A stretch of 64,000 nucleotides of DNA from Candidatus Zhuqueibacterota bacterium (GCA_049322915.1 JBMOPW010000010.1:64001-128000), one strand, 5' to 3'; shown: positions 31,953-54,328, numbered from the stretch's first letter. The notes: generated by a model from the sequence alone, not told the origin. A program made the numbers and translations.

Positions 31953-32167
31953 CAGCCCGCAAAAATGATGCGCCTGGCAAATGGCGGATCGTTGAAAGCG
32001 CCATTCATGCAATGGATCCGCGATTACCGATGCGCCAGCTCTTTTGGTAGCGAGCGCACATGTTCACAGGCCATTGTTCATTGAAACAGCGCGCTCGATT
32101 TCATGCGCAGATAGAGAGCGCCGGATGACGAGGTCCATTCACGAAACGGCTTCGCGCCTGATAAAAA

Positions 32168-32210
32168 CAAAAACGGAACACATCCCAGACTGAGGATATA
32201 TTCCGTTTTG
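32168..32210. terminator. probable bidirectional intrinsic terminator between rnr and hup
   Basis: AAAACGGAA-CACATCC ... GGATATA-TTCCGTTTT hairpin with A/T tails on both sides. Confidence 0.65.
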
Positions 32211-32238
32211 GTCTCTTTAAAGCACAACGAAATCAAAC

Positions 32239-32514
32239 TTATTTCACAGCATCTTTTAAAACTTTGCTGGCCGTAAATTTGGGACGTTTCGTTGAAGGAA
32301 TCTGAATCTTCTTTCCTGTCTGCAAATTTACACCAGTGCGGGCAGCGTAGGATTGCACTTTGAACGTGCCGAATCCCTGGAACGTGAAGGAATCTCCTTT
32401 GGCCAACGCATGTTTGATTCCGGCAAATACTGCATCGATCGCTTCGCCAGCAACTTTTTTAGATGGAATACCATCAAGGCCAGCTACTTTATCGATAAGT
32501 TCAGCTTTAGTCAT
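32239..32514 (-). CDS. hup: HU family DNA-binding protein
   Basis: MTKAELID...GFGTF...ARTGVN.QTG..IQIP...PKF. Confidence 0.92.
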   Translation of the reverse strand: MTKAELIDKVAGLDGIPSKKVAGEAIDAVFAGIKHALAKGDSFTFQGFGTFKVQSYAARTGVNLQTGKKIQIPSTKRPKFTASKVLKDAVK

Positions 32515-32830
32515 GTTAAAAGCCTCCTCTGTTAATAGTTGTGTAACAGGAATGATTAGGGTTTGTTTGCTATAAAATTTTGTTAATATTAATAAAATTT
32601 ATCGTGAATGTCAACAAAAAATTTACACGAATTTGTTTTAGAAAAAAAATTAACAACAATTCCAAAAAAGTAATATTCCATCGATAGAAAAAGTTGCGGG
32701 TGATGATCTCCCTTAACATGTTAGAAAATAGGCAATAAACAGGATTGATTTTCGGGGTGTTGCATCGGTGAAGAATAGTCCATTTCTATCCCCCAAAAAA
32801 ACGTGAGATAAAAAAAAGTGAGGATCGGCC

Positions 32831-33052
32831 ATGCTAATTGATAAAGTAATCGATGAATTGAATAATATCCGCCCGTTTCTTCAGGAAGATGGGGGCGACG
32901 TCGAATTCGTGGAGCTGAAAGACAGGACGGTTTTCGTCAGATTGACTGGCACGTGTGGTTCCTGCCCTTTCTCCGAATCGACTTTGCGGATGCGGATTGA
33001 GAAATCGCTGCTGGAGGCAATTCCGGAAATTGAACATGTTCAATCAGTTTAG
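32831..33052 (+). CDS. nfuA: NifU C-terminal (Nfu-type) Fe-S carrier
   Basis: IRPFLQEDGGDVEFV...LTGTCGSCP.S..TL. Confidence 0.85.
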   Translation: MLIDKVIDELNNIRPFLQEDGGDVEFVELKDRTVFVRLTGTCGSCPFSESTLRMRIEKSLLEAIPEIEHVQSV

Positions 33053-33164
33053 ATGATGCAGATTGAGAAGCGTTTCAGATAATTGAATTCGTGCCAGCCA
33101 TGAGCACGGTTTGAGTTGCTTTGTGTGAACATAGAAAAACTTTAAACCAGGAGGAGCAGTTAGA

Positions 33165-33611
33165 ATGAGTCAGGCATATTCGAGTAAGGTGATGGATCAT
33201 TTTGCCAATCCGAGAAATGTGGGAGAAATTGAAGATGCCGATGGAGTCGGTTATGTGGGAAATCCTGTGTGCGGCGATGTCATGCAAATGTTTATAAAAA
33301 TAAAAGATGGTGTGATTATTGAGGCGAAGTTTAAAACATTCGGTTGCGGCGCAGCCATTGCCACGAGCAGCATGGCGACCGAATTGATCAAAGGCAAGAA
33401 AATCGAAGATGCCCTCAAACTGACAAACAAGACAGTGACCGAAGCGTTGGGCGGCTTGCCAAAGGTAAAAATGCATTGTTCCGTTCTGGCTGAAGAGGCG
33501 CTTAAAAATGCGCTGGCTGATTACTTTCATAAGAATGGATTGCCTTCTCCATTACCGTTAACCACGCACAGCGCGGACGACGACAATCATCACTCCCATG
33601 AAAACGAGTGA
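33165..33611 (+). CDS. iscU: IscU/NifU N-terminal Fe-S cluster scaffold
   Basis: YSSKVMDHFANPRNVG, NPVCGD, FKTFGCGAAIATSS, LPKVKMHCS; His-rich tail. Confidence 0.92.
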   Translation: MSQAYSSKVMDHFANPRNVGEIEDADGVGYVGNPVCGDVMQMFIKIKDGVIIEAKFKTFGCGAAIATSSMATELIKGKKIEDALKLTNKTVTEALGGLPKVKMHCSVLAEEALKNALADYFHKNGLPSPLPLTTHSADDDNHHSHENE

Positions 33612-34005
33612 GTGATGATCGTGAATATAAACCATATCGCGTTTCATGGAAATCTCCTGGGTTCCCCCCGATTGAATGATGAACCAATGCCTAAAATTGA
33701 TACTGCACGGACGCAGGAAAGGGGCGATGGCTGGTTGCGCCGGTGATTTGCTTCGCTGGTGCGACGCCACCCGATTTGCAGGCAGTCTACTCCCATCCCA
33801 AAGCGATGCCGATGGCTATCGACAATTGTACTCGTTGGTAACTTGACACAACTCGACTCTCGCAGGCCATGAAAATACATGGTGCTGTTCAAAAACTACG
33901 AAAAAAAGTTTTTTTTATCAACTGAAACTTTCAGTGAATTAAATCATACAATATCATAACTTCAATTTTTAATTAAAGTAATATTAATATCATGACAGGA
34001 AATCT

Positions 34006-34335
34006 ATGAAAAAGATTGCGTACATCGTCAGCAAAGATAGTACAGCAGAATTACTGGAAGAAAGCATACTGGCTCCGCTGCTCAGCAAGGAACAGGCATG
34101 GCCAGTCAAAGGGGTGTTTTTTATCGGTGACGGGGTGTATCATTTGGTCAAGGGAAGTCGGACAGCGAAGATAATTTTTTCATTGTTGGACAATGATGAC
34201 GTGGAAATTTATGCATGCAGAATGTCTCTCAAGAACCGTAAACTTCTGAATATCATTTCAAAAAAAGTGAAAGCTGTCAGTTTGAATGACTTCTACAAAA
34301 TGATGTCCGATGTTGATCATATCATAAGCTTTTAA
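34006..34335 (+). CDS. DsrE/TusD-like sulfur-carrier family protein
   Basis: VFFIGDGVY...IYACRMSLKNR with the conserved Cys; DHIISF C-terminus. Confidence 0.75.
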   Translation: MKKIAYIVSKDSTAELLEESILAPLLSKEQAWPVKGVFFIGDGVYHLVKGSRTAKIIFSLLDNDDVEIYACRMSLKNRKLLNIISKKVKAVSLNDFYKMMSDVDHIISF

Positions 34336-34573
34336 TCCTGATGTTGTAAGCGGATCGTTCGATTTGTTGTCGAGAAGTCATTCCACTCAATTTTGTACTG
34401 CGCTATTTTTCTGTTACCTGCTCAGGGAAAAAAGAAATTACCCATTGATTTTTCCACTCGAATTCCATTGTATTGCCGATGATTTCAAATTTAACTCACA
34501 AAATGGTCATTGCTCATAAAAATCGGCATATCTAACATATTATAAAAATTTATTGTAATCTATAAAAAAGTCG

Positions 34574-34602
34574 TTGACATTTTACTGTTGATTTTGTATT
34601 AT
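34574..34602 (+). promoter_or_regulatory. sigma-70-type promoter
   Basis: TTGACA-17 nt-TATTAT, about 300 nt upstream of the MBL hydrolase gene. Confidence 0.6.
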
Positions 34603-34901
34603 GAATAATAATTAACGCTTTAATAAAGCTTATATTACAACAGACGATTTTTTGTAGGTGATTATTCATTAGTAAGTTCAGTGAATTAATTCAATGCGAC
34701 TGATATTTGGGTGTTATTCGCTCCAATTCAATTGTGACAGTCGACACAATGAAAATCTCTGAATTCGTTAAATTAATGGCCGTAGATCAGATTCACGGAA
34801 TTCAGGGAGGCATATCACTTTTTTATTTATCTGAACTTTGATTTTAAGTATTCATCGAAAGATAGTCGATGAATATTTCGAATAATGGGGAGGCATAGAG
34901 T

Positions 34902-35744
34902 ATGGAACTAAGATTCTGGGGCACACGAGGTTCTATTCCTTCTCCCGGGCCGGAAACAGTCAGATATGGCGGAAATACAACGTGTGTGGAACTCATTTTA
35001 GATGATGGCACTCTCATTGTTTTCGATGCCGGTACGGGGATTCGTGGACTTGGGGATAGTCTGATAAAGCAGAAGCGAAACGGGGTCATCCATTTATTTC
35101 TAACGCATTCACATTGGGATCATATTCAAGGCTTTCCGTTTTTTGCGCCTGCGTATACAGGAGATACTGAACTGAAAATTTTCGGTTGCCCTCCTACCTA
35201 TAATAAACTGCGGGAAATTTTGACCAACCAGATGGAATCCAAATTCTTTCCTGTGAATTTCGAACAATTGAACGCGAAGATCAGTTTTCAGGAAATTTGT
35301 AATGGTGAACATCCTATTGGTGACGCCAGATTTTCTTTCATCCGAAACAACCACCCCGGAGTGGCATACGGTTTTCGAATTGAAGAAAAAGGTAAATCCA
35401 TCGTATTCATAACAGACAACGAATTGAAACCGCCGAATAGCGCTAATACGCCCTGGCACGAATTTGTAGCATTTTGCAGGCATGCCGACCTGTTGGTGCA
35501 TGACGCTCATTACCGGCAGGTAGAGATGTCCGAGACTGCCGGCTTTGGTCATTCTTCCTACGAACAAGCGTTCAGCCTGGGCATTGAAGCTGAAACGAAG
35601 CACCTCATCTTTTTTCATCACCGGCCAGAGAGAAGCGATGATGAAATCGACACGATCATTGAAAGTTACGAACGGCAGTTGGCACTGATGCATATCGATA
35701 TGAAACTCGACGCAGCGACTGAGGGTTTAAGTTATAAAATCTAA
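34902..35744 (+). CDS. MBL-fold metallo-hydrolase (PhnP / cyclic-nucleotide phosphodiesterase-like)
   Basis: FWGTRGSIP.PG...YGGNTTC, DAGTG, THSHWDHIQGFPFF, HPG, TDNE, GHSS, FHH.P. Confidence 0.88.
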   Translation: MELRFWGTRGSIPSPGPETVRYGGNTTCVELILDDGTLIVFDAGTGIRGLGDSLIKQKRNGVIHLFLTHSHWDHIQGFPFFAPAYTGDTELKIFGCPPTYNKLREILTNQMESKFFPVNFEQLNAKISFQEICNGEHPIGDARFSFIRNNHPGVAYGFRIEEKGKSIVFITDNELKPPNSANTPWHEFVAFCRHADLLVHDAHYRQVEMSETAGFGHSSYEQAFSLGIEAETKHLIFFHHRPERSDDEIDTIIESYERQLALMHIDMKLDAATEGLSYKI

Positions 35745-35785
35745 TCTTCACAGTGAGTCTGGATACTTAATTGTGGAGGCAGAGA

Positions 35786-36271
35786 ATGATAACGAGGTTT
35801 TCCGGCAAAGAAATAATCGAAATGGCAATTCGTATTGAAGTGAAAGACCAGGAATTTTATAAAGGGCTGGAAGAACGGGCGACGACTCATGATTTGAAGC
35901 AGCTCTATCATTGGCTCGCTATTGAAGAGGAGAAGCATATTCATGTCTTTGAAAAAATGAAGCAATTTGTTGAGCGTATTGAACTGCGCAATCCTCAGGA
36001 ATGGCAGGAGGCCATGCTTTATTTTGACGCGCTGATCCGGACCAGAGTATTTGCAGAGACCCCTGATGCAAATTCGCTGATTAATGAATTGAAGGACGAT
36101 ATTGGCGCTATTCAAATTGCAATCAGTTTTGAAAAGGATAGTATTTTGTTTTTCCAGGAAATGAATACGCTGGTTGACGACAGAGAAAAAGATATCATCG
36201 AGAAACTCATTATCGAAGAGAAAGGCCATATTCTGAAGCTGCTGAAAATGATGCAGCATGTCACGGCCTGA
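35786..36271 (+). CDS. ferritin-like / rubrerythrin-family di-iron protein
   Basis: Twice-repeated A..E...FY...EE.KH motif (AIRIE...EEEKH; AISFE...EEKGH). Confidence 0.85.
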   Translation: MITRFSGKEIIEMAIRIEVKDQEFYKGLEERATTHDLKQLYHWLAIEEEKHIHVFEKMKQFVERIELRNPQEWQEAMLYFDALIRTRVFAETPDANSLINELKDDIGAIQIAISFEKDSILFFQEMNTLVDDREKDIIEKLIIEEKGHILKLLKMMQHVTA

Positions 36272-45218: not shown

Positions 45219-46310
45219 ATGGGCTTCACATGTGGATTGGTTGGATTGCCCAATGTCGGCAAATCGACCCTTTTTAACGCGCTGACATCCCAAAGCGTGC
45301 CGGCTTCAAATTACCCGTTCTGTACCATCGATCCCAATGTGGGCGTTGTGCCGCTGCGCGATGAGCGCCTCGAAAAGATCGCTGCCATCGTCGGTTCCGC
45401 AAAGGCGACGCCGACCAGTCTGGAATTCATCGATATTGCCGGGCTGGTGAAAGGCGCGAGCACGGGCGAGGGGCTGGGCAACCAGTTCCTCAACCATATT
45501 CAGGCGGTGGACGCCATCGCCCATGTGGTCCGCTGTTTCGAGGACGAAAATGTCGCGCACATTTCAGCGAAGCTGGACCCTGTGAATGACGTGGATATCA
45601 TTCTGACCGAGCTGACGCTGCACGATCTGGAAGTTGTCGGGCGCAATCTGGAAAAATTAAGGGCGGCGGCCAGGACTGGCGACCCGAAAGTGAAGCAACG
45701 CCTTGCTGAACTGAGCGACATTCACGAGGCTCTTGCCCGGGGGAATCCGTTAAAAAAGATGACGCTGTCCGAAATCGGAATGGAATTGGTGCGCGAAATC
45801 AACCTGCTCACCATCAAGCCGGCGATATACATCGCCAATGTCGATGAAAAGCATTACAAAGACAGTCCGCACGTGGCGCAATTGATTCAATACGCAAGTC
45901 AGTGGAACGAGCCATGCGTGATTATCAGCGGCAAGCTGCAGGAAGAGATCGCGCAACTGGATGCGGACAGTCAGGTCGAATTTTTGCAGGAATGGGGACT
46001 GGACGAGCTGAGCCTGAATAAAATCGTGCGCGCCGGCTACCAGGTTTTGAACCTGATCACCTTCTTCACAGCCAACCAGAACGAAGCGCACGCCTGGACT
46101 GTCCCTCGCGGCGCCGGCGTGCAAAAGGCGGCTGGAAAAGTTCACTCCGATTTTGAGCAGGGTTTTATTCGGGCGGAGGTGATCAAATTCGCGGATTTGA
46201 TCGAATTCGGCTCGGACGCTAATCTGCGAGAGCATGGCAAAATAGCCATACACGGGAAAGATTATGTGGTTGAAGATGGGGATTTGATTTTTTTCAGATC
46301 AAAGGTGTGA
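45219..46310 (+). CDS. ychF: redox-regulated ATPase YchF
   Basis: GLPNVGKSTLFNALT, NYPFCTIDPN, DIAGLVKGAS.GEGLGNQFL, TGS domain. Confidence 0.97.
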   Translation: MGFTCGLVGLPNVGKSTLFNALTSQSVPASNYPFCTIDPNVGVVPLRDERLEKIAAIVGSAKATPTSLEFIDIAGLVKGASTGEGLGNQFLNHIQAVDAIAHVVRCFEDENVAHISAKLDPVNDVDIILTELTLHDLEVVGRNLEKLRAAARTGDPKVKQRLAELSDIHEALARGNPLKKMTLSEIGMELVREINLLTIKPAIYIANVDEKHYKDSPHVAQLIQYASQWNEPCVIISGKLQEEIAQLDADSQVEFLQEWGLDELSLNKIVRAGYQVLNLITFFTANQNEAHAWTVPRGAGVQKAAGKVHSDFEQGFIRAEVIKFADLIEFGSDANLREHGKIAIHGKDYVVEDGDLIFFRSKV

Positions 46311-46390
46311 TACGCAATCCGTCAGTGTGGCTGTTTTTTGGGCGCCGGCGATGAACTGGCAGTGAAATTTCCACGACCCGCCGCTGTGCA

Positions 46391-47254
46391 TCAATCCTTT
46401 CGGAAATGATGTTCGGCCATCCAGCGTTTCATTTTTTCGACAATGGAGTAGGGCACATCCATTTTACCGATGAGAATTTCCGAAAATCGCTTTCCGTGGC
46501 AATCCGATCCTCCGGTTTCGATCAATCCAAATTTCTTCGCGAATCCGCGATAATGCTGAAGCTGTTCCTGGGAGTGGCGCGGATGAATCGTCTCGATGCC
46601 ATTGAGCCCGACTTTAATCAGTTCCAGCAGGCCGTCGTCGGTGACGTCTGAGCCGGGATGGGCGATGACGCAGACGCCTCCGGCTCTATTGATCAACGCA
46701 ATCGCTTCTGCTGGCGATATTTTGTACTTTGGCACGGCGCAGGGACAGCCGTCGCCGATGTACCGATTGAACGCATCGTAGTAGTTGTAGGCAAAACCCT
46801 CTTCCACCAGCGCGTCGGCGATATGGGGCCGTCCAATGGACCCCGGCCCGGCTTTCTGGCGAATGAAATCGAATGAAAGATGGATGCCAAAATTTTTCAG
46901 GAGGGCGATGATTTTGTGGGCGCGTTTAATTCGCTCTTCCTGGAAGAAATTGACATATTCGATGAGTTGCGGGTGGTTGTAATCGAAAAAATAGCCTAAC
47001 AGGTGGAGATCAAAACTTTTCGAGCGCGCGGAAATTTCGATGCCGGAGATGAATTCAATATTCTTCTCGCGGCAATAGCATTCCGTTTCTTCCAGGCCCC
47101 GAATATCATCGTGGTCAGTGATGCTGATCGCTTTGACAGCGCGCTCCACTGCAATATCGACGATTTCACGGGCCGAAAGCATGCCATCGGACCGATTGGA
47201 ATGGATGTGCAGATCCGCGCGAGACTCTGAAAATAGGGGGTTTTGAGAGTTCAT
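46391..47254 (-). CDS. PHP-domain phosphoesterase (TrpH/YciV-like)
   Basis: DLHIHSNRSDG, ITDHD, GIEIS, HLLGY, GRPHIA, AHP, GGSDCHG. Confidence 0.9.
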   Translation of the reverse strand: MNSQNPLFSESRADLHIHSNRSDGMLSAREIVDIAVERAVKAISITDHDDIRGLEETECYCREKNIEFISGIEISARSKSFDLHLLGYFFDYNHPQLIEYVNFFQEERIKRAHKIIALLKNFGIHLSFDFIRQKAGPGSIGRPHIADALVEEGFAYNYYDAFNRYIGDGCPCAVPKYKISPAEAIALINRAGGVCVIAHPGSDVTDDGLLELIKVGLNGIETIHPRHSQEQLQHYRGFAKKFGLIETGGSDCHGKRFSEILIGKMDVPYSIVEKMKRWMAEHHFRKD

Positions 47255-47289
47255 GCCACGAATTTTTTCTTTAATTATAACATTACGAA

Positions 47290-48351
47290 CTAACGGATTT
47301 GAAGCATTCGGTCCAGCGCTTTCCGGGCGTCACTTTTTACCGTGTTGGGAACTGACACAATATTGACTTTGCCCAGATTATCCAGCGTCCAGCACAAATT
47401 ATTCAGATTGATTTTATACATATTGGCGCACATGGACCGGCTGAGCGGGATAATTTTTTTATTTGAATACGAATTGCTCAGTCGATTTACAAGGTTAATT
47501 TCTGTACCCACGGCGATCACCGAGCCGGCAGGCGCCTGATCGACGTACTGAATGATGTGGCTCGTTGAACCACTGGCGTCGGAAGCGTTCACCACCGATT
47601 CACTGCATTCCGGGTGGACGATCACTTTTCCATCCGGATACTGTTCGCGGAAGTGTTCAATATGCTGCACCTTAAACGCAGTATGAACGAGACAATGTCC
47701 CTTCCAGACAATGATCTTTGCCTGCCTGATTTTCTCCGGATCATTTCCCCCGAACGGCTTCTTCGGATCCCAGACGATCCGCTGGCCCTCTGAAATTCCC
47801 ATCCGATTGGCGGTATTGGCGCCCAGATGCTGATCCGGGAAGAAAAATGCTTTTTCGCCCCGTTCAAACGCCCAGGCCATCGCTCCCCGCGCATTCGACG
47901 AGGTGCAGACGACGCCATCATACTCGCCGCAAAAGGCCTTGAGTTCCGCGCTGGAGTTCACGTAGGTGACCGGAACAATCGATTCGACATCGCAGACGCT
48001 GCTGAGTTCCTGCCAGGCGTGAGTCACCATGGATAAATCAGCGAAATTCGCCAGTGGACACCCGGAGTGAATATCCGGCAGGTGCACAATTTGCGAGTCA
48101 CTGGAAAGTATGTCCGCTGCTTCGGCCATGAAATAAACGCCGCAGAATACGATGAATTCGGCCTGTTTCTGTTCTGCTGCATTGATGCACAGCGCGTAGG
48201 AATCGCCGCGGAAATTGGCCATTTCAATGACATCGTCCCGCTGGTAATGATGCCCCAGAATGACCAGCCTCTTTCCGTATTTCTCTTTCGCAGTCAGGAT
48301 GCGCTTCTTTAACTCCGCATCCGACGCTATTTTATATTCATCAGGAAGCAT
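47290..48351 (-). CDS. nadA: quinolinate synthase
   Basis: LGHHYQ, GDS, FCGVYFMAE, GCPLA, YVNSSA, CTSSNA, GHCLVH, HPEC, GST, MCANM. Confidence 0.95.
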   Translation of the reverse strand: MLPDEYKIASDAELKKRILTAKEKYGKRLVILGHHYQRDDVIEMANFRGDSYALCINAAEQKQAEFIVFCGVYFMAEAADILSSDSQIVHLPDIHSGCPLANFADLSMVTHAWQELSSVCDVESIVPVTYVNSSAELKAFCGEYDGVVCTSSNARGAMAWAFERGEKAFFFPDQHLGANTANRMGISEGQRIVWDPKKPFGGNDPEKIRQAKIIVWKGHCLVHTAFKVQHIEHFREQYPDGKVIVHPECSESVVNASDASGSTSHIIQYVDQAPAGSVIAVGTEINLVNRLSNSYSNKKIIPLSRSMCANMYKINLNNLCWTLDNLGKVNIVSVPNTVKSDARKALDRMLQIR

Positions 48352-49102
48352 TTTCTTCTTGTCTTGGTTTAGGTTGTGAAAATTTCGATACCCAGATGCT
48401 GATCTCGTAGAGTATCAACAGGGGACCGGCCAGCAATAGCTGAGTCACAGCGTCGGGCGGAGTAAGGATGGCCGCAACGATGAAAATGATGACAATGCCG
48501 TATCGTCGCTTGGTGCGCATGAATTCCGGCGTCAGGAGCCCCATCTTGCTCAGGAAAAATGACAGCAACGGCAACTCGAAAACCATGCCGAAAACCATGA
48601 TCAACAGCGTGACGAATTTCAGATATTCCTTGATCTGAATGGTCGGCTCCAGCTGATCAGAACCAAAGGCCAGCAGATAGTTCAGGCCATATCTGATGAT
48701 GACGAAATAACAGAAAGCTGCGCCCATGAGAAAGAAAAAGGATGAATAGAAAACAATAAGTGGTATGTACTTTCGCTCTTTCTTGTACAGTCCCGGGGCA
48801 ACAAATTTCCACAGGTGATAAAAAATGACAGGCAGGCTGACGATTATCCCGGCAAAGAAAGCGACCTTGATGTGGACAATGAAGCCCTCTGTCGGCGCCA
48901 GAAATATCAGCTTTTCATTTTTGGGATAAGGGCGCAGGAGAAATGCCATGATGTATTTGGAAAAGTAAAATGCCACCATACTCGTGACAGAAACAGTAAC
49001 AATGATCCAGATGAGCCTCTGCCGCAATTCTTCCAGATGTTCCAGAAAAGGCATTACTTTTTCCTGAGGCTCAGCACCATTTTTATTGTCTTCTTGGGTC
49101 AT
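48341..49102 (-). CDS. tatC: twin-arginine translocase subunit TatC
   Basis: MPFLEHLEELR.RL, W.FVAPGLY..E, GMVFELP, AAILTPPD, LYEISI. Confidence 0.96.
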   Translation of the reverse strand: MTQEDNKNGAEPQEKVMPFLEHLEELRQRLIWIIVTVSVTSMVAFYFSKYIMAFLLRPYPKNEKLIFLAPTEGFIVHIKVAFFAGIIVSLPVIFYHLWKFVAPGLYKKERKYIPLIVFYSSFFFLMGAAFCYFVIIRYGLNYLLAFGSDQLEPTIQIKEYLKFVTLLIMVFGMVFELPLLSFFLSKMGLLTPEFMRTKRRYGIVIIFIVAAILTPPDAVTQLLLAGPLLILYEISIWVSKFSQPKPRQEENAS

Positions 49103-49240
49103 AGTCTTTCATTTGGTTAATAGATTCGTGAATTCAGGAGGACCAAATCAGGCGGGGTGTCCTGCATACCCACCTGAGACCTCAACGTTGCTAAAAGAAA
49201 AATCGCTTTGGAATCTGTCTGTTCAGCGACATCCTCATCA

Positions 49241-49882
49241 TTAAATTTTCAGTCCGGTGAAGCCCAGAAAAGTGATGCCCATCAGCCCGGCAAGAATCAA
49301 TGCAATGGGCGCACCGCGCAGTAATTTCGGGACCGGCGCCAGTTCCAATCGTTCCAGAATGCCAGCCATGAGAATCACCACAATGGTGAAGCCTGCGCCG
49401 GCGGCAACACTGTGGATGAGGCTTCTCAGCAAATTTCCAGTATCATAAAATTCAGGGCTGAGATTCAACAGCGCCACTGCCAGGATGATGCTGTTCGCGG
49501 CAATGGAGGGCAGATATCGCCCCGGCGAATTGTTCAGCGCCGGACTGATTTTACCAATGATCCCATCCATAAGTTTCACAATGCCGAGAATGACCAGGAT
49601 GGATACGATCGTTCGTAAAGCGGCGACACCCGGCGGATTCGCTCCCTCCGCAATGATACGCCACAGGTGCGATGACCCTGGCTTCAGCAGGTAATGATCG
49701 GCAAGCCAAGTGATCGCCGACGTCGCGACCAGCACGAAGCTGACAGCCATTCCCGTGCTAAGCGCGGAGTCCGCTTTCTTCGAAGCATCCCGAAATGAAT
49801 GGATGCCCAGCAATCGCTTCAGCACAAAATTGTTGATGGCCACAGAGCCGATGATGAGAATGAATAGCTCGCGTATTTCCAA
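49241..49882 (-). CDS. rnfA: RnfA-like membrane subunit, both [2Fe-2S]-ligating Cys lost
   Basis: TTG start after GGAG; NNFVLKRLLGIHSF (canonical NN.VL..FLG.CPF), YLPSIAANSIIL (canonical LPLITTNCA.LG), G.PIALI.AGLM...F.GF. Confidence 0.8.
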   Translation of the reverse strand: MEIRELFILIIGSVAINNFVLKRLLGIHSFRDASKKADSALSTGMAVSFVLVATSAITWLADHYLLKPGSSHLWRIIAEGANPPGVAALRTIVSILVILGIVKLMDGIIGKISPALNNSPGRYLPSIAANSIILAVALLNLSPEFYDTGNLLRSLIHSVAAGAGFTIVVILMAGILERLELAPVPKLLRGAPIALILAGLMGITFLGFTGLKI

Positions 49883-49907
49883 TCGCTGCTCCCTGAAATG
49901 AACCGCG

Positions 49908-50021
49908 CTAATCGATTGTGCCGTTTCCCTCTCGGCCGGGCAATCCCATGAACAAATCCGGGGAAATGAATGCGTCTGCCGCAAGGATGAAAATCAACCC
50001 CGGCGCGAATCGCCCGTCCAT
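49908..50021 (-). pseudogene. rnfE: decayed C-terminal relic of rnfE
   Basis: Minus-strand translation MDGRFAPGLIFILAADAFISPDLFMGL... resembles the RnfE C-terminal P.LIFILPPGAF..LG helix and lies at the canonical rnfE position just before rnfA. Confidence 0.6.
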
Positions 50022-50099
50022 CACAAGATTTACTCAGTTGTAAGAGATTTATTTAAACTTCCGGAATCGCTCCCGACTGAAAAAATCAACGCTTCTCCG

Positions 50100-51149
50100 T
50101 CATCGGCGCCAGATATTTTTACCCATTTGTCCGAACGACTTTGGCTGCGTCATTCGATCCAACAACGGAACGGTCAGGTTCATCAGCAGGATGGCGTACG
50201 AGACGCCCTCAGGGTATCCGCCGATTTGCCGGATGAGCACGGTGATGACGCCGCAGCCAACGCCGAAAATGATTCTGCCGGAATAAGTGACCGGCGACGT
50301 GACCATATCCGTGGCCATATAAAATGCGCCCAAAATCAATCCCCCGGACAGCACATGAAAAATGGGATCGCCGGTGAACAGGCCTTCGGCGCCGCCGAAA
50401 ATCAACGACAGAATCGCCACGGTGCTCAAATAGCTCACCGGGATTTTCAGCCCAATGTAGCGCTTGTACATCAGATACACTGCGCCTCCCAGCAACAGCA
50501 GCGCCGATGTCTCGCCGATGCAGCCCCCGACATTCCCGAGAAACAGGTTGCGGTACGATTCCGAAAGTTGACTGACGGCTTCAGTCGCTTTTTGCACTTT
50601 GTCCTGCACAGACGGATCGGTCTGATGCAGGATAATTTCCTTCGATGCCTTGTAGACGCTCAGCGGCGTCGCGTGAGTGATCGCGTCAATGCCGGAGAGC
50701 GTGCCGAATTGCGGCGCTGTGGTGAACGTGGTCATTCGGGTCGGCCAGGCCGCCATGAGAAAGGCGCGGCCCAGCAGCGCCGGATTCAACGGATTGTAGC
50801 CCAGTCCGCCGAACGGGACTTTGCCGATGCCAATGGCAAAGGCGGAACCTATCGCAGCCAGCCACCACGGCGAGCCAGCCGGCAGGCTGAATGCCAGCAG
50901 AATTCCTGTCACAATGGTGCTCCCGTTTTTGACCGGGATCGGCTGTTTCATCAATGCATAAAGAACGGCTTCGGTGACCACGGCCGCGGCCATGGCCGAT
51001 AAAATGAGCCAACCCGCCTGAGTTCCAAAATAATAGATTGCGCCGACCATCGCCGGTACCAATGAGAACGCAACGCTGAACATGATTCGCGGAATCGAAT
51101 CTTTATCTGTAATGTGCGGGGAGGACGAGACGAAAAAAGATTTTTCCAT
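50100..51149 (-). CDS. rnfD: Rnf complex subunit D (apparently intact)
   Basis: SSPH, FGGLGYNPLNPAL.GRAFL, FMN-Thr motif DAITHATPL, GCIGETS, FYMATDMVTSP, GGYPEGVSYAILLMN. Confidence 0.93.
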   Translation of the reverse strand: MEKSFFVSSSPHITDKDSIPRIMFSVAFSLVPAMVGAIYYFGTQAGWLILSAMAAAVVTEAVLYALMKQPIPVKNGSTIVTGILLAFSLPAGSPWWLAAIGSAFAIGIGKVPFGGLGYNPLNPALLGRAFLMAAWPTRMTTFTTAPQFGTLSGIDAITHATPLSVYKASKEIILHQTDPSVQDKVQKATEAVSQLSESYRNLFLGNVGGCIGETSALLLLGGAVYLMYKRYIGLKIPVSYLSTVAILSLIFGGAEGLFTGDPIFHVLSGGLILGAFYMATDMVTSPVTYSGRIIFGVGCGVITVLIRQIGGYPEGVSYAILLMNLTVPLLDRMTQPKSFGQMGKNIWRR

Positions 51150-51176
51150 GGATCGAATTCATTGACTCCAGATAGT

Positions 51177-52520
51177 TCAGGCCGCTTTCGGATTTGAATT
51201 CAGAATGTTGGCAGCGGTGCGTTTGCCAGCCTGGAATAACAGAACATGAGGAATATTGGCCGGGCACACGAATGAACACGCGCCGCATTCAATGCAGTCC
51301 ATCAGGCCCATTCGATGCGCTTCCTCCAGCCGATCGAATTTAACGAGCTGAGCCAGGGCATTGGGCATCAGATTCATGGGACAGGTATCCACACAGCGCG
51401 CGCAGCGGATGCACGGTCCCTCGGTTCGGATTTTAACCTCTTTCTTTGTCAGCACGACAATGCCGGACGTGGCATTGATGACCGGAACGTCCAGCGTGGA
51501 TTGGGCAATGCCCATCATAGGCCCGCCGTGGATGACAGCAGCGGCGTCTTTTGTGAGCCCGCCGCAAAAGTCGATCAGATTCTGGATGGGTGTGCCGAGA
51601 CGCACCAGCACATTTTTGGGTTCGCTCACCCCTTTGCCTGTCACCGTGATGACCCGCTCGTACAGCGGCTTTGAAGATGAAACTGCGTCGTAGACAGCCT
51701 TCACGGTCGCCACATTAAAAACGAGACACCCTACATCCATGGGGCTGCCGCCGGACGGCACATAGCGATTGGTGATCGCTTTGATGAGCTGCTTTTCCGC
51801 GCTTTGAGGATATTTCACATTCAGACGGACGATGCTCACCTGGTCCCCGGATTCACGAATCATTCGCTGCATGAGCGCAATGGCGTCCGATTTGTTTTTC
51901 TCGAGAGCGATGTACCCGGTTTTACAGCCGGATAATTTCATCAGGATGCGGACGCCCTCCAGAATTTCGTTGGGTCGTTCCAGCAATAATCGATGGCCTG
52001 CTGTGAGAAATGGTTCGCTCTCGATTCCGTTCAAAATGAAGGTGAGCGCATTTTTATTGGGCGATTGCGACCTTCTCTCTGCTGCAGAAGAAACAGCGTC
52101 GCTCACAGCGGCAAGACCTGATTGTTGGATTTTCCCGCGCATCACGGCGATGTCCTGAGCCATGTAATTGTGAACTGGCGCAATGGAAGGAGCCAGGGTA
52201 TCGGCGCCATCATTGGTGATGACGATGGCTCTTGCATGTCCTCCCTGCGGATGCGGTCGGTTTTCGATGGCGCTGACAGTCCCTGAAACCGATGCGTGAG
52301 TGAACGAGGAAACATTTCCCGGTGTCTGCCAGACAACATCGCCGATTTGCACATGATCGCCGACCCGGACTGTGGGTTCGGCTGGCGCGTTGTTATGCTG
52401 AAGGACAGGTAGAATCACCTGTTCCGGACGGGGCAATACTTCAATTGGTTTTTTAAAAACAAATTTTTTATATTCGGGGGGATGGACACCGCCTTTGAAT
52501 GTCAGTTTTCTAAAAAACAT
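51177..52520 (-). CDS. rnfC: Rnf complex subunit C-like protein with a degenerate FMN/NADH site and intact 2x[4Fe-4S] motifs
   Basis: FKGGVHP, HASVSG, GGPMMG, CIRCARCVDTCP, CIECGACSFVCP retained; the G.VGMGGA.FPT motif is replaced by GLAAVSDAVSSA. Confidence 0.88.
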   Translation of the reverse strand: MFFRKLTFKGGVHPPEYKKFVFKKPIEVLPRPEQVILPVLQHNNAPAEPTVRVGDHVQIGDVVWQTPGNVSSFTHASVSGTVSAIENRPHPQGGHARAIVITNDGADTLAPSIAPVHNYMAQDIAVMRGKIQQSGLAAVSDAVSSAAERRSQSPNKNALTFILNGIESEPFLTAGHRLLLERPNEILEGVRILMKLSGCKTGYIALEKNKSDAIALMQRMIRESGDQVSIVRLNVKYPQSAEKQLIKAITNRYVPSGGSPMDVGCLVFNVATVKAVYDAVSSSKPLYERVITVTGKGVSEPKNVLVRLGTPIQNLIDFCGGLTKDAAAVIHGGPMMGIAQSTLDVPVINATSGIVVLTKKEVKIRTEGPCIRCARCVDTCPMNLMPNALAQLVKFDRLEEAHRMGLMDCIECGACSFVCPANIPHVLLFQAGKRTAANILNSNPKAA

Positions 52521-52572
52521 CGTTCTTCGTCACACTTAATTTTCATGTCGAACACCCACACCCGTTGGAGAA

Positions 52573-53019
52573 TCAGTTCAGTTCTTCAAGTTCGGCCAGA
52601 AATTGCTCTTTGTCCTGGAAATTGCGGTACACAGAAGCAAAGCGAACGTACGCAACGTGATCCAGTTTTTTGAGGTGGCTCATCACGAGCATGCCAATTT
52701 CTTTGGAGGTAATTTCCTCGACGGCATTGTCTTTGATTGTATTCTCGATTTGAGCGATCATTTCATCGATCTGCTCAACGGAAATGGGACGCTTGCTGCA
52801 GGCTAATTGAATTCCCTGTTTCAATTTATCACGGTTGAACGACTCACGCCGGAGATCGGATTTTACAACCAGAATCGGTGATTCCTCGACGAGCTCTTTG
52901 GTTGTAAATCGTCTTTCGCATGAAAGGCATTCCCGTCGCCGGCGAATGACGCGGCCTTCGCTCTTCGACCGTGAATCAATGACTTTGCTATTGGCAAAAC
53001 CACAGTACGGACAACGCAT
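52573..53019 (-). CDS. nrdR: transcriptional repressor NrdR
   Basis: MRCPYC...VIDSR...IRRRREC..C..RFTT, ATP cone, VAYVRFASVY. Confidence 0.97.
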   Translation of the reverse strand: MRCPYCGFANSKVIDSRSKSEGRVIRRRRECLSCERRFTTKELVEESPILVVKSDLRRESFNRDKLKQGIQLACSKRPISVEQIDEMIAQIENTIKDNAVEEITSKEIGMLVMSHLKKLDHVAYVRFASVYRNFQDKEQFLAELEELN

Positions 53020-53041
53020 AACTACCCTCTTTCGTTAATTG

Positions 53042-54328
53042 TTAAAATTGATAGAGAGGGAATTGCTGGCATAATTCGTAGACTCCGGCACGTACCTTGT
53101 CATAAACAGTTTCATTCCCTACGTTTGTAAGTACAAGATCTATCATTTTGAAAATCTCTTTCATTTCATTTTCCTTCATCCCGCGGGTGGTCAGCGCAGG
53201 CGTTCCCACCCGGATGCCGCTGGTGATGAAAGGACTTTGATCGTCGAAGGGCACCATATTTTTATTGACTGTGATGCCGGCTTCCTCCAGCGCGCCTTCG
53301 GCCTTTTTCCCGGTGAGACCCTTGTTGCGCAAATCAATAAGCATCAAATGGGTGTCGGTTCCATTGGAAATAATTTTGTAGTCGTGGCTGATGAATTCAT
53401 CCGCCAGGGCTTTGGCATTTGCAATCACTTGTCGGGAATAGTCTTTGAACGCCGGCTCCAGAGCTTCCTTGAACGCAACAGCCTTGGCCGCGATGACGTG
53501 CATCAGCGGACCGCCCTGAAATCCCGGAAAGACATTGGAATCAACGATCTGGCCGATGGTTTTTGGCTTGCCTTTGGGCGTCAGTTGACCCATATCGTTT
53601 TCTTCATCCGTGCCGACCAGTATCATGCCGCCGCGCGGCCCGCGCAGGGTTTTGTGCGTGGTTGTCGTCACCAGATGGCAATGTTGTATTGGGCTTTTAA
53701 TGAGTCCGGCAGCGATGAGACCGGCCGGATGAGCGATGTCGGCGATCAATTTCGCTCCGACCCGGTCGGCGATTTCGCGGAACGCTTTGTAGTCGATTTC
53801 GCGGGAGTAGGCGCTGGCGCCGGTCATGATTAATCGGGGCCTTTCTTTGAGCGCAAGCTGTTCCACCTGGTTCATGTCGATATAGCCGGTGTCCTCACGC
53901 ACGCCGTATGAGACGATTCGGAAAAGACGGCCGGAGAAGTTCACCGGACTGCCGTGGGTCAAATGTCCGCCGTGGTCCAGGTTCATGCCCATCACCGTAT
54001 CGCCGGGATTGGCAAAGGTGAAATAAGCGGCGATGTTCGCCTGAGAGCCGGAGTGAGGCTGGACATTGACATGCTCGGCCTGGAACAACAGTTTGGCGCG
54101 TTCACGGGCGAGATCTTCGGCCGCATCGACAAAAACGCAGCCGCCATAATAACGTTTGCCGGGATAGCCTTCGGCGTATTTATTGGTCATCACCTGGCCC
54201 ATGGCCTCCAATACGGCGGGACTGACAAAATTCTCTGAGGCAATCATCTCTAATTTGTCATTCTGCCGGGAAATTTCATCCTGAATGGACTTGTAAACTT
54301 CAGGATCGGTCTGTTGTAAATGGTTCAT
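53042..54328 (-). CDS. glyA: serine hydroxymethyltransferase
   Basis: [57 protein letters not shown]. Confidence 0.98.

Follow-up and report, generated by a model that had tools for sequence, protein, structure and literature searches.

A reduced rnfC-rnfD-rnfA locus with altered cofactor sites in a Candidatus Zhuqueibacterota bacterium, and signs of its retention under selection

The canonical Rnf complex, a ferredoxin:NAD+ oxidoreductase (EC 7.2.1.2), is composed of six subunits, RnfABCDGE, and structures include 7ZC6, 9ERI and 8AHX. Electrons are described as passing from ferredoxin to RnfB, RnfA/RnfE, the flavin mononucleotide (FMN) of RnfG, the FMN of RnfD, riboflavin, two clusters of RnfC, FMN and finally nicotinamide adenine dinucleotide (NAD+) (PMC9588780). 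The locus described here lies in a 64,000-nucleotide stretch of a Candidatus Zhuqueibacterota bacterium (GCA_049322915.1, JBMOPW010000010.1:64001-128000), hereafter the window. By the names that sources give them, the closest homologues assign the organism to candidate division KSB1 (Zhuqueibacterota). Three genes, written here rnfC', rnfD and rnfA' (49241-52520, minus strand), are the genes of the rnf operon that remain there. This remnant is a recent, lineage-specific derivative of the complete, syntenic rnfCDGEA cluster and unlinked rnfB of KSB1/Zhuqueibacterota relatives.

Other described systems depart from the canonical scheme in ways that bear on this locus. NqrA of Na+-NQR is reported to be an RnfC homologue without cofactors (PMC12174285) and to be held on the membrane by an arm of the RnfD/NqrB homologue (PMC9588780, PMC12174285). 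The Tol2-type Rnf of Desulfobacula toluolica, also represented by Rnf2 of Desulfococcus multivorans, has an RnfC that according to PMC5109826 cannot use NAD(H), and another electron donor or acceptor was postulated. That RnfC is described as being without the NADH-oxidoreductase and SLBB domains, and it is accompanied by an NAD-binding RnfB of ~700 amino acids and by the other subunits (PMC5109826). Two-subunit Nqr/Rnf-like complexes are encoded in flavinylation-associated gene clusters and were proposed to carry out one-way transmembrane electron transfer without pumping (PMC11334425). As described, they are composed of an RnfG/NqrC-like subunit and an RnfD-like subunit that is fused to an NAD-binding domain and has no flavinylation Thr (PMC11334425).

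The remnant has the defining features of none of these systems. RnfC', RnfD and RnfA' are clear orthologues of canonical Rnf subunits by synteny and retain the flavinylation motif of RnfD and both Fe-S motifs of RnfC, but with rnfG, rnfE and rnfB missing only C, D and A of the six subunits remain. Relative to the described path, what is missing is the entry (RnfB, RnfA/RnfE and RnfG) and the end (the RnfC FMN and NAD+). As reported for NqrA (PMC9588780, PMC12174285), the RnfC-type fold is retained and FMN/NADH binding appears lost. Unlike NqrA, RnfC' keeps both 4Fe-4S motifs, scores 31.7 on TIGR01936 (cut-off 321), is unlinked to the nqr-like operon of this genome (contig C1), and arose recently within KSB1 and not at the origin of NQR. 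The RnfC of the Tol2-type complex is, like RnfC', unfit for NAD(H) by the published account, but RnfC' keeps the Complex1_51K and SLBB folds and here B, G and E are absent. The two-subunit complexes, as described, are likewise reduced Rnf/Nqr derivatives; here, in contrast, RnfD is unfused and retains its Thr, no RnfG is encoded next to it, and the cytoplasmic module is an RnfC' with Fe-S motifs. Literature searches, supplementary files aside, found no published description of a C-D-A-only Rnf.

All genes of the locus are on the minus strand. rnfC' (51177-52520) encodes 447 amino acids, rnfD (50100-51149) encodes 349, and rnfA' (49241-49882) encodes 213 when read from a TTG at 49882; nrdR (52573-53019) and tatC (48341-49102) are the conserved upstream and downstream flanks. 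The original prediction held that rnfC, rnfD and rnfA alone lie between nrdR and tatC as uninterrupted open reading frames (ORFs), and the reading of the ORFs agrees, with no further rnf gene in the interval and no stop or frameshift in the three. It overlooked a decayed 3' stub of rnfE at 49908-50030, which comprises the last 40 codons and the aligned stop codon and lies in the 217 nucleotides (nt) between the rnfD stop and the rnfA' start. The stub matches RnfE residues 161-188 by blastx (E = 3e-5), and all six relatives inspected match it. It ends 25 nt before rnfA', where the corresponding distance is 30 nt in the sole other genome of the genus (G001). Its identity to the relatives is 10-14 of 40 residues, against 28-32 of 40 among the relatives themselves. 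The stub is the scar of an rnfG-rnfE deletion, a single event of ~1 kb that took out rnfG together with ~158 codons from the start of rnfE. The remaining 69 nt after the rnfD stop (50031-50099), read by eye, gave no significant match; an ATG overlapping the rnfD stop may be a remnant of the rnfG start. An assembly artefact is unlikely, as a contig of 8,058 bp from run X1 spans 46300-53510 with zero differences and a contig from an independent run covers 49792-50038, which takes in the stub and the start of rnfA'. A promoter and terminator scan returned counts at chance level.

The ancestral arrangement is seen in all six relatives, G001 included, where nrdR-rnfC-D-G-E-A...tatC-nadA-PHP is syntenic and the motifs are canonical. 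The rnfB gene was removed by a second deletion, at its own locus: the rnfB region of G001 is syntenic in the genome of the window (G000, 96% complete), but ~910 nt including rnfB are replaced by ~129 nt. The RnfB profile found nothing above its cut-off in G000, while G001 and two further relatives, G009 and G002, each have one match. Searches of G000 by tblastn with the RnfB, RnfG and RnfE of G001 found no orthologue, and profile and tblastn searches together found no second rnf operon and no replacement rnfG, rnfE or rnfB in that genome. The genome-wide survey that the original prediction had proposed therefore finds neither rnfG/E/B nor a second operon, and it does find apbE (ApbE, 251 bits). 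The PF02508 matches of G000 are rnfA' and the nqrD/E-like genes on contig C1, and its sole FMN_bind protein is NqrC-like and encoded in the same C1 operon.

Beside the former rnfB site lies an element of ~220 nt (contig C11:~90785-91006, L040 4785-5006; L034 696-917). When translated, the G000 and G001 copies share 93% identity, far more than the adjoining genes do, and the element may be a small conserved gene or RNA.

RnfC' scores 471.9 against TIGR01945 (cut-off 245.95), and its best PDB match has E = 1e-108. It comprises an N-terminal barrel, a Complex1_51K fold (124 bits), an SLBB domain (55 bits) and two [4Fe-4S] sites. The FMN/NADH pocket (51996-52118; residues 135-175, GLAAVSDAVSSAAERRSQSP ... 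NGIESEPFLTAG) is degenerate. Its Gly-rich loop reads GLAAVSDAVSSA where the canonical sequence is G(L/I)AGMGGA(A/T)FP(T/S), IESEPF is found in place of AECEP(F/Y), and QHNNAP in place of QH(I/L)GAP, leaving neither the Gly-rich loop nor the ECEP motif of an Rnf-type RnfC. Alignments to the solved chains 7zc6, 9eri and 8ahx and to the six relatives bear out the motif losses that had been read from the window alone. Most of the lost codons had been judged to be about one substitution from consensus, which also holds: among the 24 changed motif residues, 17 are one nucleotide from a relative's codon, 5 are two and 2 are three. The two CxxCxxCxxxCP motifs (51261-51413; residues 370-381, CIRCARCVDTCP, and 409-420, CIECGACSFVCP) are intact, as predicted, and all eight Cys are invariant in the alignment (A2).

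The changes in RnfC' are not evenly spread. Among 118 canonical RnfC sequences, 68 invariant columns fall in the FMN/NADH domain and 74 elsewhere; RnfC' differs at 23 of the former and at 5 of the latter (Fisher p = 4.8e-5). Excess nonsynonymous divergence (dN) reaches 0.46 in the C-terminal tail and 0.30 in residues 131-180, which hold the pocket, and is 0.17 for the N-terminal barrel; the Fe-S core shows no more than 0.076, and the 0.035 of SLBB is not significant. Relaxation thus appears to be concentrated where the lost cofactors and partners were sited, and the fast evolution of the barrel and tail would reflect the loss of contact with RnfB.

RnfD is the least altered of the three. It scores 332.9 against TIGR01946 (cut-off 207.05), PF03116 is its sole Pfam domain, and its best PDB match has E = 1e-79. 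The flavinylation motif ITHATPL (50661-50681) places Thr161 opposite Thr153 of 7zc6_D, and at the level of sequence both the Thr targeted by ApbE and a genomic apbE are present. Asn122, Glu213 and Asp281 are also retained. The original description of RnfD as canonical throughout stands for the flavinylation Thr and for a near-canonical protein overall, but it is too strong: 8 of 143 invariant columns are changed (canonical mean 1.06, maximum 8), the gene is accelerated, and N88S falls at the position of Clostridium tetanomorphum Asn90, which has been proposed as a residue of the Na+ path (PMC9588780). The N-terminal arm (residues 5-20) matches the family consensus, with an excess dN of 0.026 (not significant), and in 7ZC6 this arm is reported to be buried inside RnfC (PMC9588780). 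As called in public annotation, the RnfD of both derived lineages (the second is described below) starts at Met23 and has 327 amino acids; the conserved arm upstream of Met23 argues for the 349-residue protein.

RnfA' is the most altered. It scores 162.6 against TIGR01943, under the cut-off of 229.3, where RnfC' and RnfD exceed theirs, and its best PDB match has E = 7e-39. The mechanical ORF runs from 49241 to 49984 and encodes 247 amino acids, of which the bases 49883-49984 overlap the dead rnfE stub. The true start is likely the TTG at 49882, because AGGGAG lies 6 nt upstream and the position aligns with the start codons of the relatives and of the homologue P0002, which RnfA' then equals in length and start position. 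The Cys pair that is reported to ligate the RnfA/RnfE metal site (PMC9588780) is gone, as the original prediction had noted: RnfA' has LGIHSF (H28, within 49793-49810) where LG(I/T)CPY is canonical and ANS (S131, within 49484-49501) where TNC is canonical. Six hydrophobic segments are kept, and so is the positive-inside bias in Lys and Arg (+5 and +3, canonical +2 to +5); a dual-topology or antiparallel homodimer is unsupported, given this bias. Excess dN is 0.05 (not significant) in the last 35 residues and 0.19-0.64 across the remaining protein. Those last 35 residues take in the C-terminal transmembrane helix, which is described as contacting helix V of RnfD in 7ZC6 (PMC9588780).

The textbook ion-pumping ferredoxin:NAD+ reaction has, as far as sequence can tell, been lost, because RnfB, RnfG, RnfE, the RnfA/RnfE metal site and the RnfC FMN/NADH pocket are all gone.

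The original prediction allowed for the arrangement being private to one strain, and it is not. Run X2, a cave metagenome, contains a ~96%-identical strain in which the rnf pieces differ by 2.5-4.6% and the tatC, glyA and TPR pieces by 3.3-4.6%, a comparison drawn from piece-level counts and one site (51803), with joints of low likeness and short sides disregarded. In this strain, X2, the rnfE stub has 4 extra nt inserted at 49932. A second lineage was found among 5.8 billion proteins, with P0016 (RnfC', 85% identical), P0136 (RnfD, 90%) and P0002 (RnfA', 82%); the source given for each is one 39,986-bp contig, presumably the same for all three. For RnfA', the query in the protein, phylum-genome, metagenome and PDB searches was 211 amino acids, without the first two residues. 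The second lineage shares the degenerate loop (GLTAVSDAVTEAAEKRAQSP) and IESEPF, has lost both RnfA' Cys (R and G there), and has in common with the RnfD of the window N88S and a 4-residue C-terminal extension. YPQG is kept both there and in strain X2, so the YPQS listed among the RnfC losses is real in the window's strain but private to it. Of the 28 invariant-column departures of RnfC', 26 fall at positions that are changed in the second lineage too, and in 21 of these the new residue is identical. The two lineages therefore split after the remodelling, and the frames have stayed open in both since. DNA of the second lineage was sought in two metagenome scans, which gave distant RnfA loci only, and in family and phylum genome searches, which gave none. 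Depth for the organism is about 70x in biofilm or cave samples. The variant is so far confined to one genus-level clade of uncultured bacteria.

A rather unlikely explanation of the locus is slow decay. On this account the leftover genes have been functionless since the loss of rnfG-rnfE and rnfB and are pseudogenes in waiting, with residual constraint that reflects, for example, selection to avoid misfolded or toxic pieces of membrane proteins, or a recent onset of neutrality. Synonymous divergence (dS) between G000 and G001 is saturated (1.4 to undefined), and no classical dN/dS is obtainable; branch-specific dN, with five outgroups, and the rnfE stub as a neutral yardstick were used for that reason. 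On the G000 and G001 branches, respectively, dN is 0.114 and 0.050 for rnfD, 0.181 and 0.038 for rnfC, and 0.332 and 0.100 for rnfA. Excess divergence at codon positions 1 and 2 (95% interval in brackets) is 0.47 (0.27-0.76) for the stub, 0.226 (0.17-0.30) for rnfA', 0.145 (0.11-0.19) for rnfC', 0.064 (0.04-0.09) for rnfD and about 0.00 for control genes. The stub, in the same locus, is thus 2-7 times more diverged than the three genes, although the margin over rnfA' is modest; the bootstrap probability that it is no more diverged is 0.010 for rnfA' and 0 for both rnfC' and rnfD.

The reading frames also speak against slow decay. With no selection from the deletion onwards, each gene would be expected to have gathered 3-11 stops, and none is observed, with the frames open in the second lineage as well. 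Neutral simulation with the stub's divergence set to its lower bound (d = 0.27) gives 8.0 expected stops for rnfC, 5.8 for rnfD and 3.3 for rnfA, and the probability of no stop is 0.0025, 0.0025 and 0.0175, respectively. Even when the excess amino-acid changes alone are taken as neutral, the joint probability of no stop is 0.002. Stops or frameshifts together with neutral divergence, the marks of a pseudogene, characterize the rnfE stub and none of the three ORFs. Excess divergence varies 3.6-fold between genes and about 10-fold between domains, a spread that one simultaneous, locus-wide switch to neutrality would not fit. In addition, two separate deletions hit exactly rnfG-rnfE and rnfB and spared rnfC, rnfD and rnfA. 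By these rates, the three genes have been under graded purifying selection since the deletion, strong for rnfD, intermediate and domain-specific for rnfC', and weak for rnfA'; the signal of selection is well supported for rnfD and rnfC'. The earlier preference for site-specific relaxation over decay of the whole operon is upheld both by the uneven RnfC' columns and by ORFs that are less diverged than the stub.

Several observations, the saturated dS among them, weigh against retention, and some of them favor slow decay directly. The yardstick is a stub of 40 codons only. All three genes are accelerated on the G000 branch alone (the replacement rate of rnfD is 2.3 times that of the same-genus orthologue), where the six flanking genes rpiB, glyA, nrdR, tatC, nadA and PHP have equal rates on both branches. 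Between the two derived lineages the gradient of conservation is flattened: they differ at 8.5% of canonically invariant RnfC' columns, where 192 canonical pairs with the same identity differ at 1.2%, and for RnfD the figures are 2.9% against 0.5%. In RnfA' the gradient is entirely missing, with differences at 16 of 85 invariant columns and at 1 of 26 variable ones. This protein is the weakest case for retention among the three and behaves as nearly neutral: its probability of no stop on the excess changes is 0.11, 23% of simulations with 57 neutral changes reach its observed retention of hydropathy, and its NCBIfam score is the one below cut-off. RnfA' may be on its way out. The distribution is narrow, with the derived RnfA' type found in 1 of 167 phylum genomes (the window's own) and in none of the other 166, for a total of one phylum genome and two metagenomic relatives. 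The second lineage is known here from its proteins alone. Rnf itself appears dispensable in the KSB1 group, because among 40 related genomes surveyed, 28 have an Rnf-type RnfA and 1 has a partial copy at a contig end, and the other 11 have Nqr-type matches alone or no RnfA match. No RNA runs containing the locus are listed.

The preferred reading is that RnfC', RnfD and possibly RnfA' are a selected subcomplex with an NAD-independent role, and on the patterns of conservation the chances for this seem about even. The elements that appear to be still conserved are those of such a subcomplex: the N-terminal arm and flavin-site residues of RnfD, the SLBB domain and two [4Fe-4S] sites of RnfC', and the C-terminal end of RnfA'. 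Most likely, the three proteins would still assemble, and the cofactors of the subcomplex would be the two Fe-S clusters of RnfC' and, in RnfD, riboflavin and a covalent FMN. One end of the electron route would be a one-electron partner in the cytoplasm, and the other the outer face of the membrane or an acceptor in the membrane or periplasm. Transfer would proceed without NAD(H) and without ion pumping. A fuller version of this reading, for now doubtful, is that RnfC'-RnfD braced by RnfA' would act as an autonomous, non-pumping and NAD-independent wire that runs from a ferredoxin-type partner through the two 4Fe-4S clusters, riboflavin and the RnfD FMN to the outer face, with possible electron exchange with the NqrC of a resident NqrA-less complex.

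That resident complex is encoded on contig C1 (55401-60521; L004 5402-10521). The operon is composed of genes for a small 4Fe-4S ferredoxin, an nqrB/rnfD-like protein, an nqrC-like protein, nqrD, nqrE and a short nqrF-like protein of 369 amino acids, which is below the TIGR01941 cut-off and is followed by a 151-amino-acid ORF. The nqrA gene was not found anywhere in the G000 genome; an NQRA_N match on contig C35 was rejected as NqrA. It belongs to a 390-amino-acid fusion of a response-regulator receiver with a GcvH-like lipoyl-carrier domain (78259-79431, minus strand; L032 2259-3431). The same NqrA-less operon is found in G001 and G009.

A hybrid complex, in which RnfC' and RnfD, with or without RnfA', work with subunits of this ferredoxin-NqrBCDEF-like operon, could, for example, have NqrC stand in for RnfG as the periplasmic flavin shuttle, and RnfC' would be at the place of NqrA. 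The operon holds the only other Rnf/Nqr genes of the genome and its sole FMN_bind protein, there is no nqrA, and loss of FMN shifts RnfC' toward the cofactor-free NqrA described in PMC12174285. Such a hybrid is nevertheless quite improbable. The operon is 73-94% identical in G001 and is present in G009, both of which have a canonical Rnf, so RnfC' is not needed for it, and it has an NqrB-like subunit of its own. RnfC', moreover, is far below the nqrA cut-off and has kept its Fe-S motifs, and no co-localisation or co-variation of the two sets of genes was found.

Non-redox moonlighting would explain the conservation differently: RnfD would be kept for transport, as a channel or for another membrane role, with RnfC' and RnfA' as its structural partners and with flavin and Fe-S sites that serve folding only. 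RnfD is the best conserved of the three proteins, its fold is reported to resemble that found in transporters for urea and ammonium (PMC9588780), and N88S alters the proposed Na+-path residue in both derived lineages. The retention of Thr161, Asp281 and all eight Fe-S cysteines makes this account highly unlikely, as does the near-canonical rate of the RnfC' Fe-S core, which is unexpected if the redox cofactors are irrelevant.

Some further observations lie outside the locus. A second RnfC_N match in the genome, on contig C16 (~318000-322000; L031 4067-8073), was rejected as Rnf; it is a PduS-like protein in which the domains (Complex1_51K, Fe-S, RnfC_N) are permuted. Genes for a bacterial microcompartment shell protein, a class II aldolase, an acetate kinase and an aldehyde dehydrogenase adjoin it, and the region has the look of a microcompartment locus. 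Within the window, positions 32001-36000 have a G+C fraction of 0.40-0.43 against about 0.50-0.55 elsewhere, and this stretch may be a foreign island. The NqrA-less, ferredoxin-linked Nqr relative on C1 may deserve a look of its own.

For the organism, the consequence is first one of annotation. Pipelines will report RnfC, RnfD and RnfA as present, and in metabolic reconstructions of KSB1/Zhuqueibacterota, according to PMC11683472, Rnf is a marker of anaerobic energy conservation. A reconstruction of that kind would wrongly assign ferredoxin:NAD+ coupling to this organism. For the Rnf family, the locus is a natural dissection, in which a neutral stub beside selected neighbours shows what stays constrained without RnfB, RnfE and RnfG, and it suggests that the half made up of RnfC and RnfD is separable as a module. 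RnfC' parallels the route by which NqrA lost its cofactors and adds to the Rnf descendants that are unable to use NAD(H). If RnfC'-RnfD does act as a wire, the exit half of Rnf would work alone, and the locus would be a living snapshot of the cofactor loss that leads from RnfC to NqrA.

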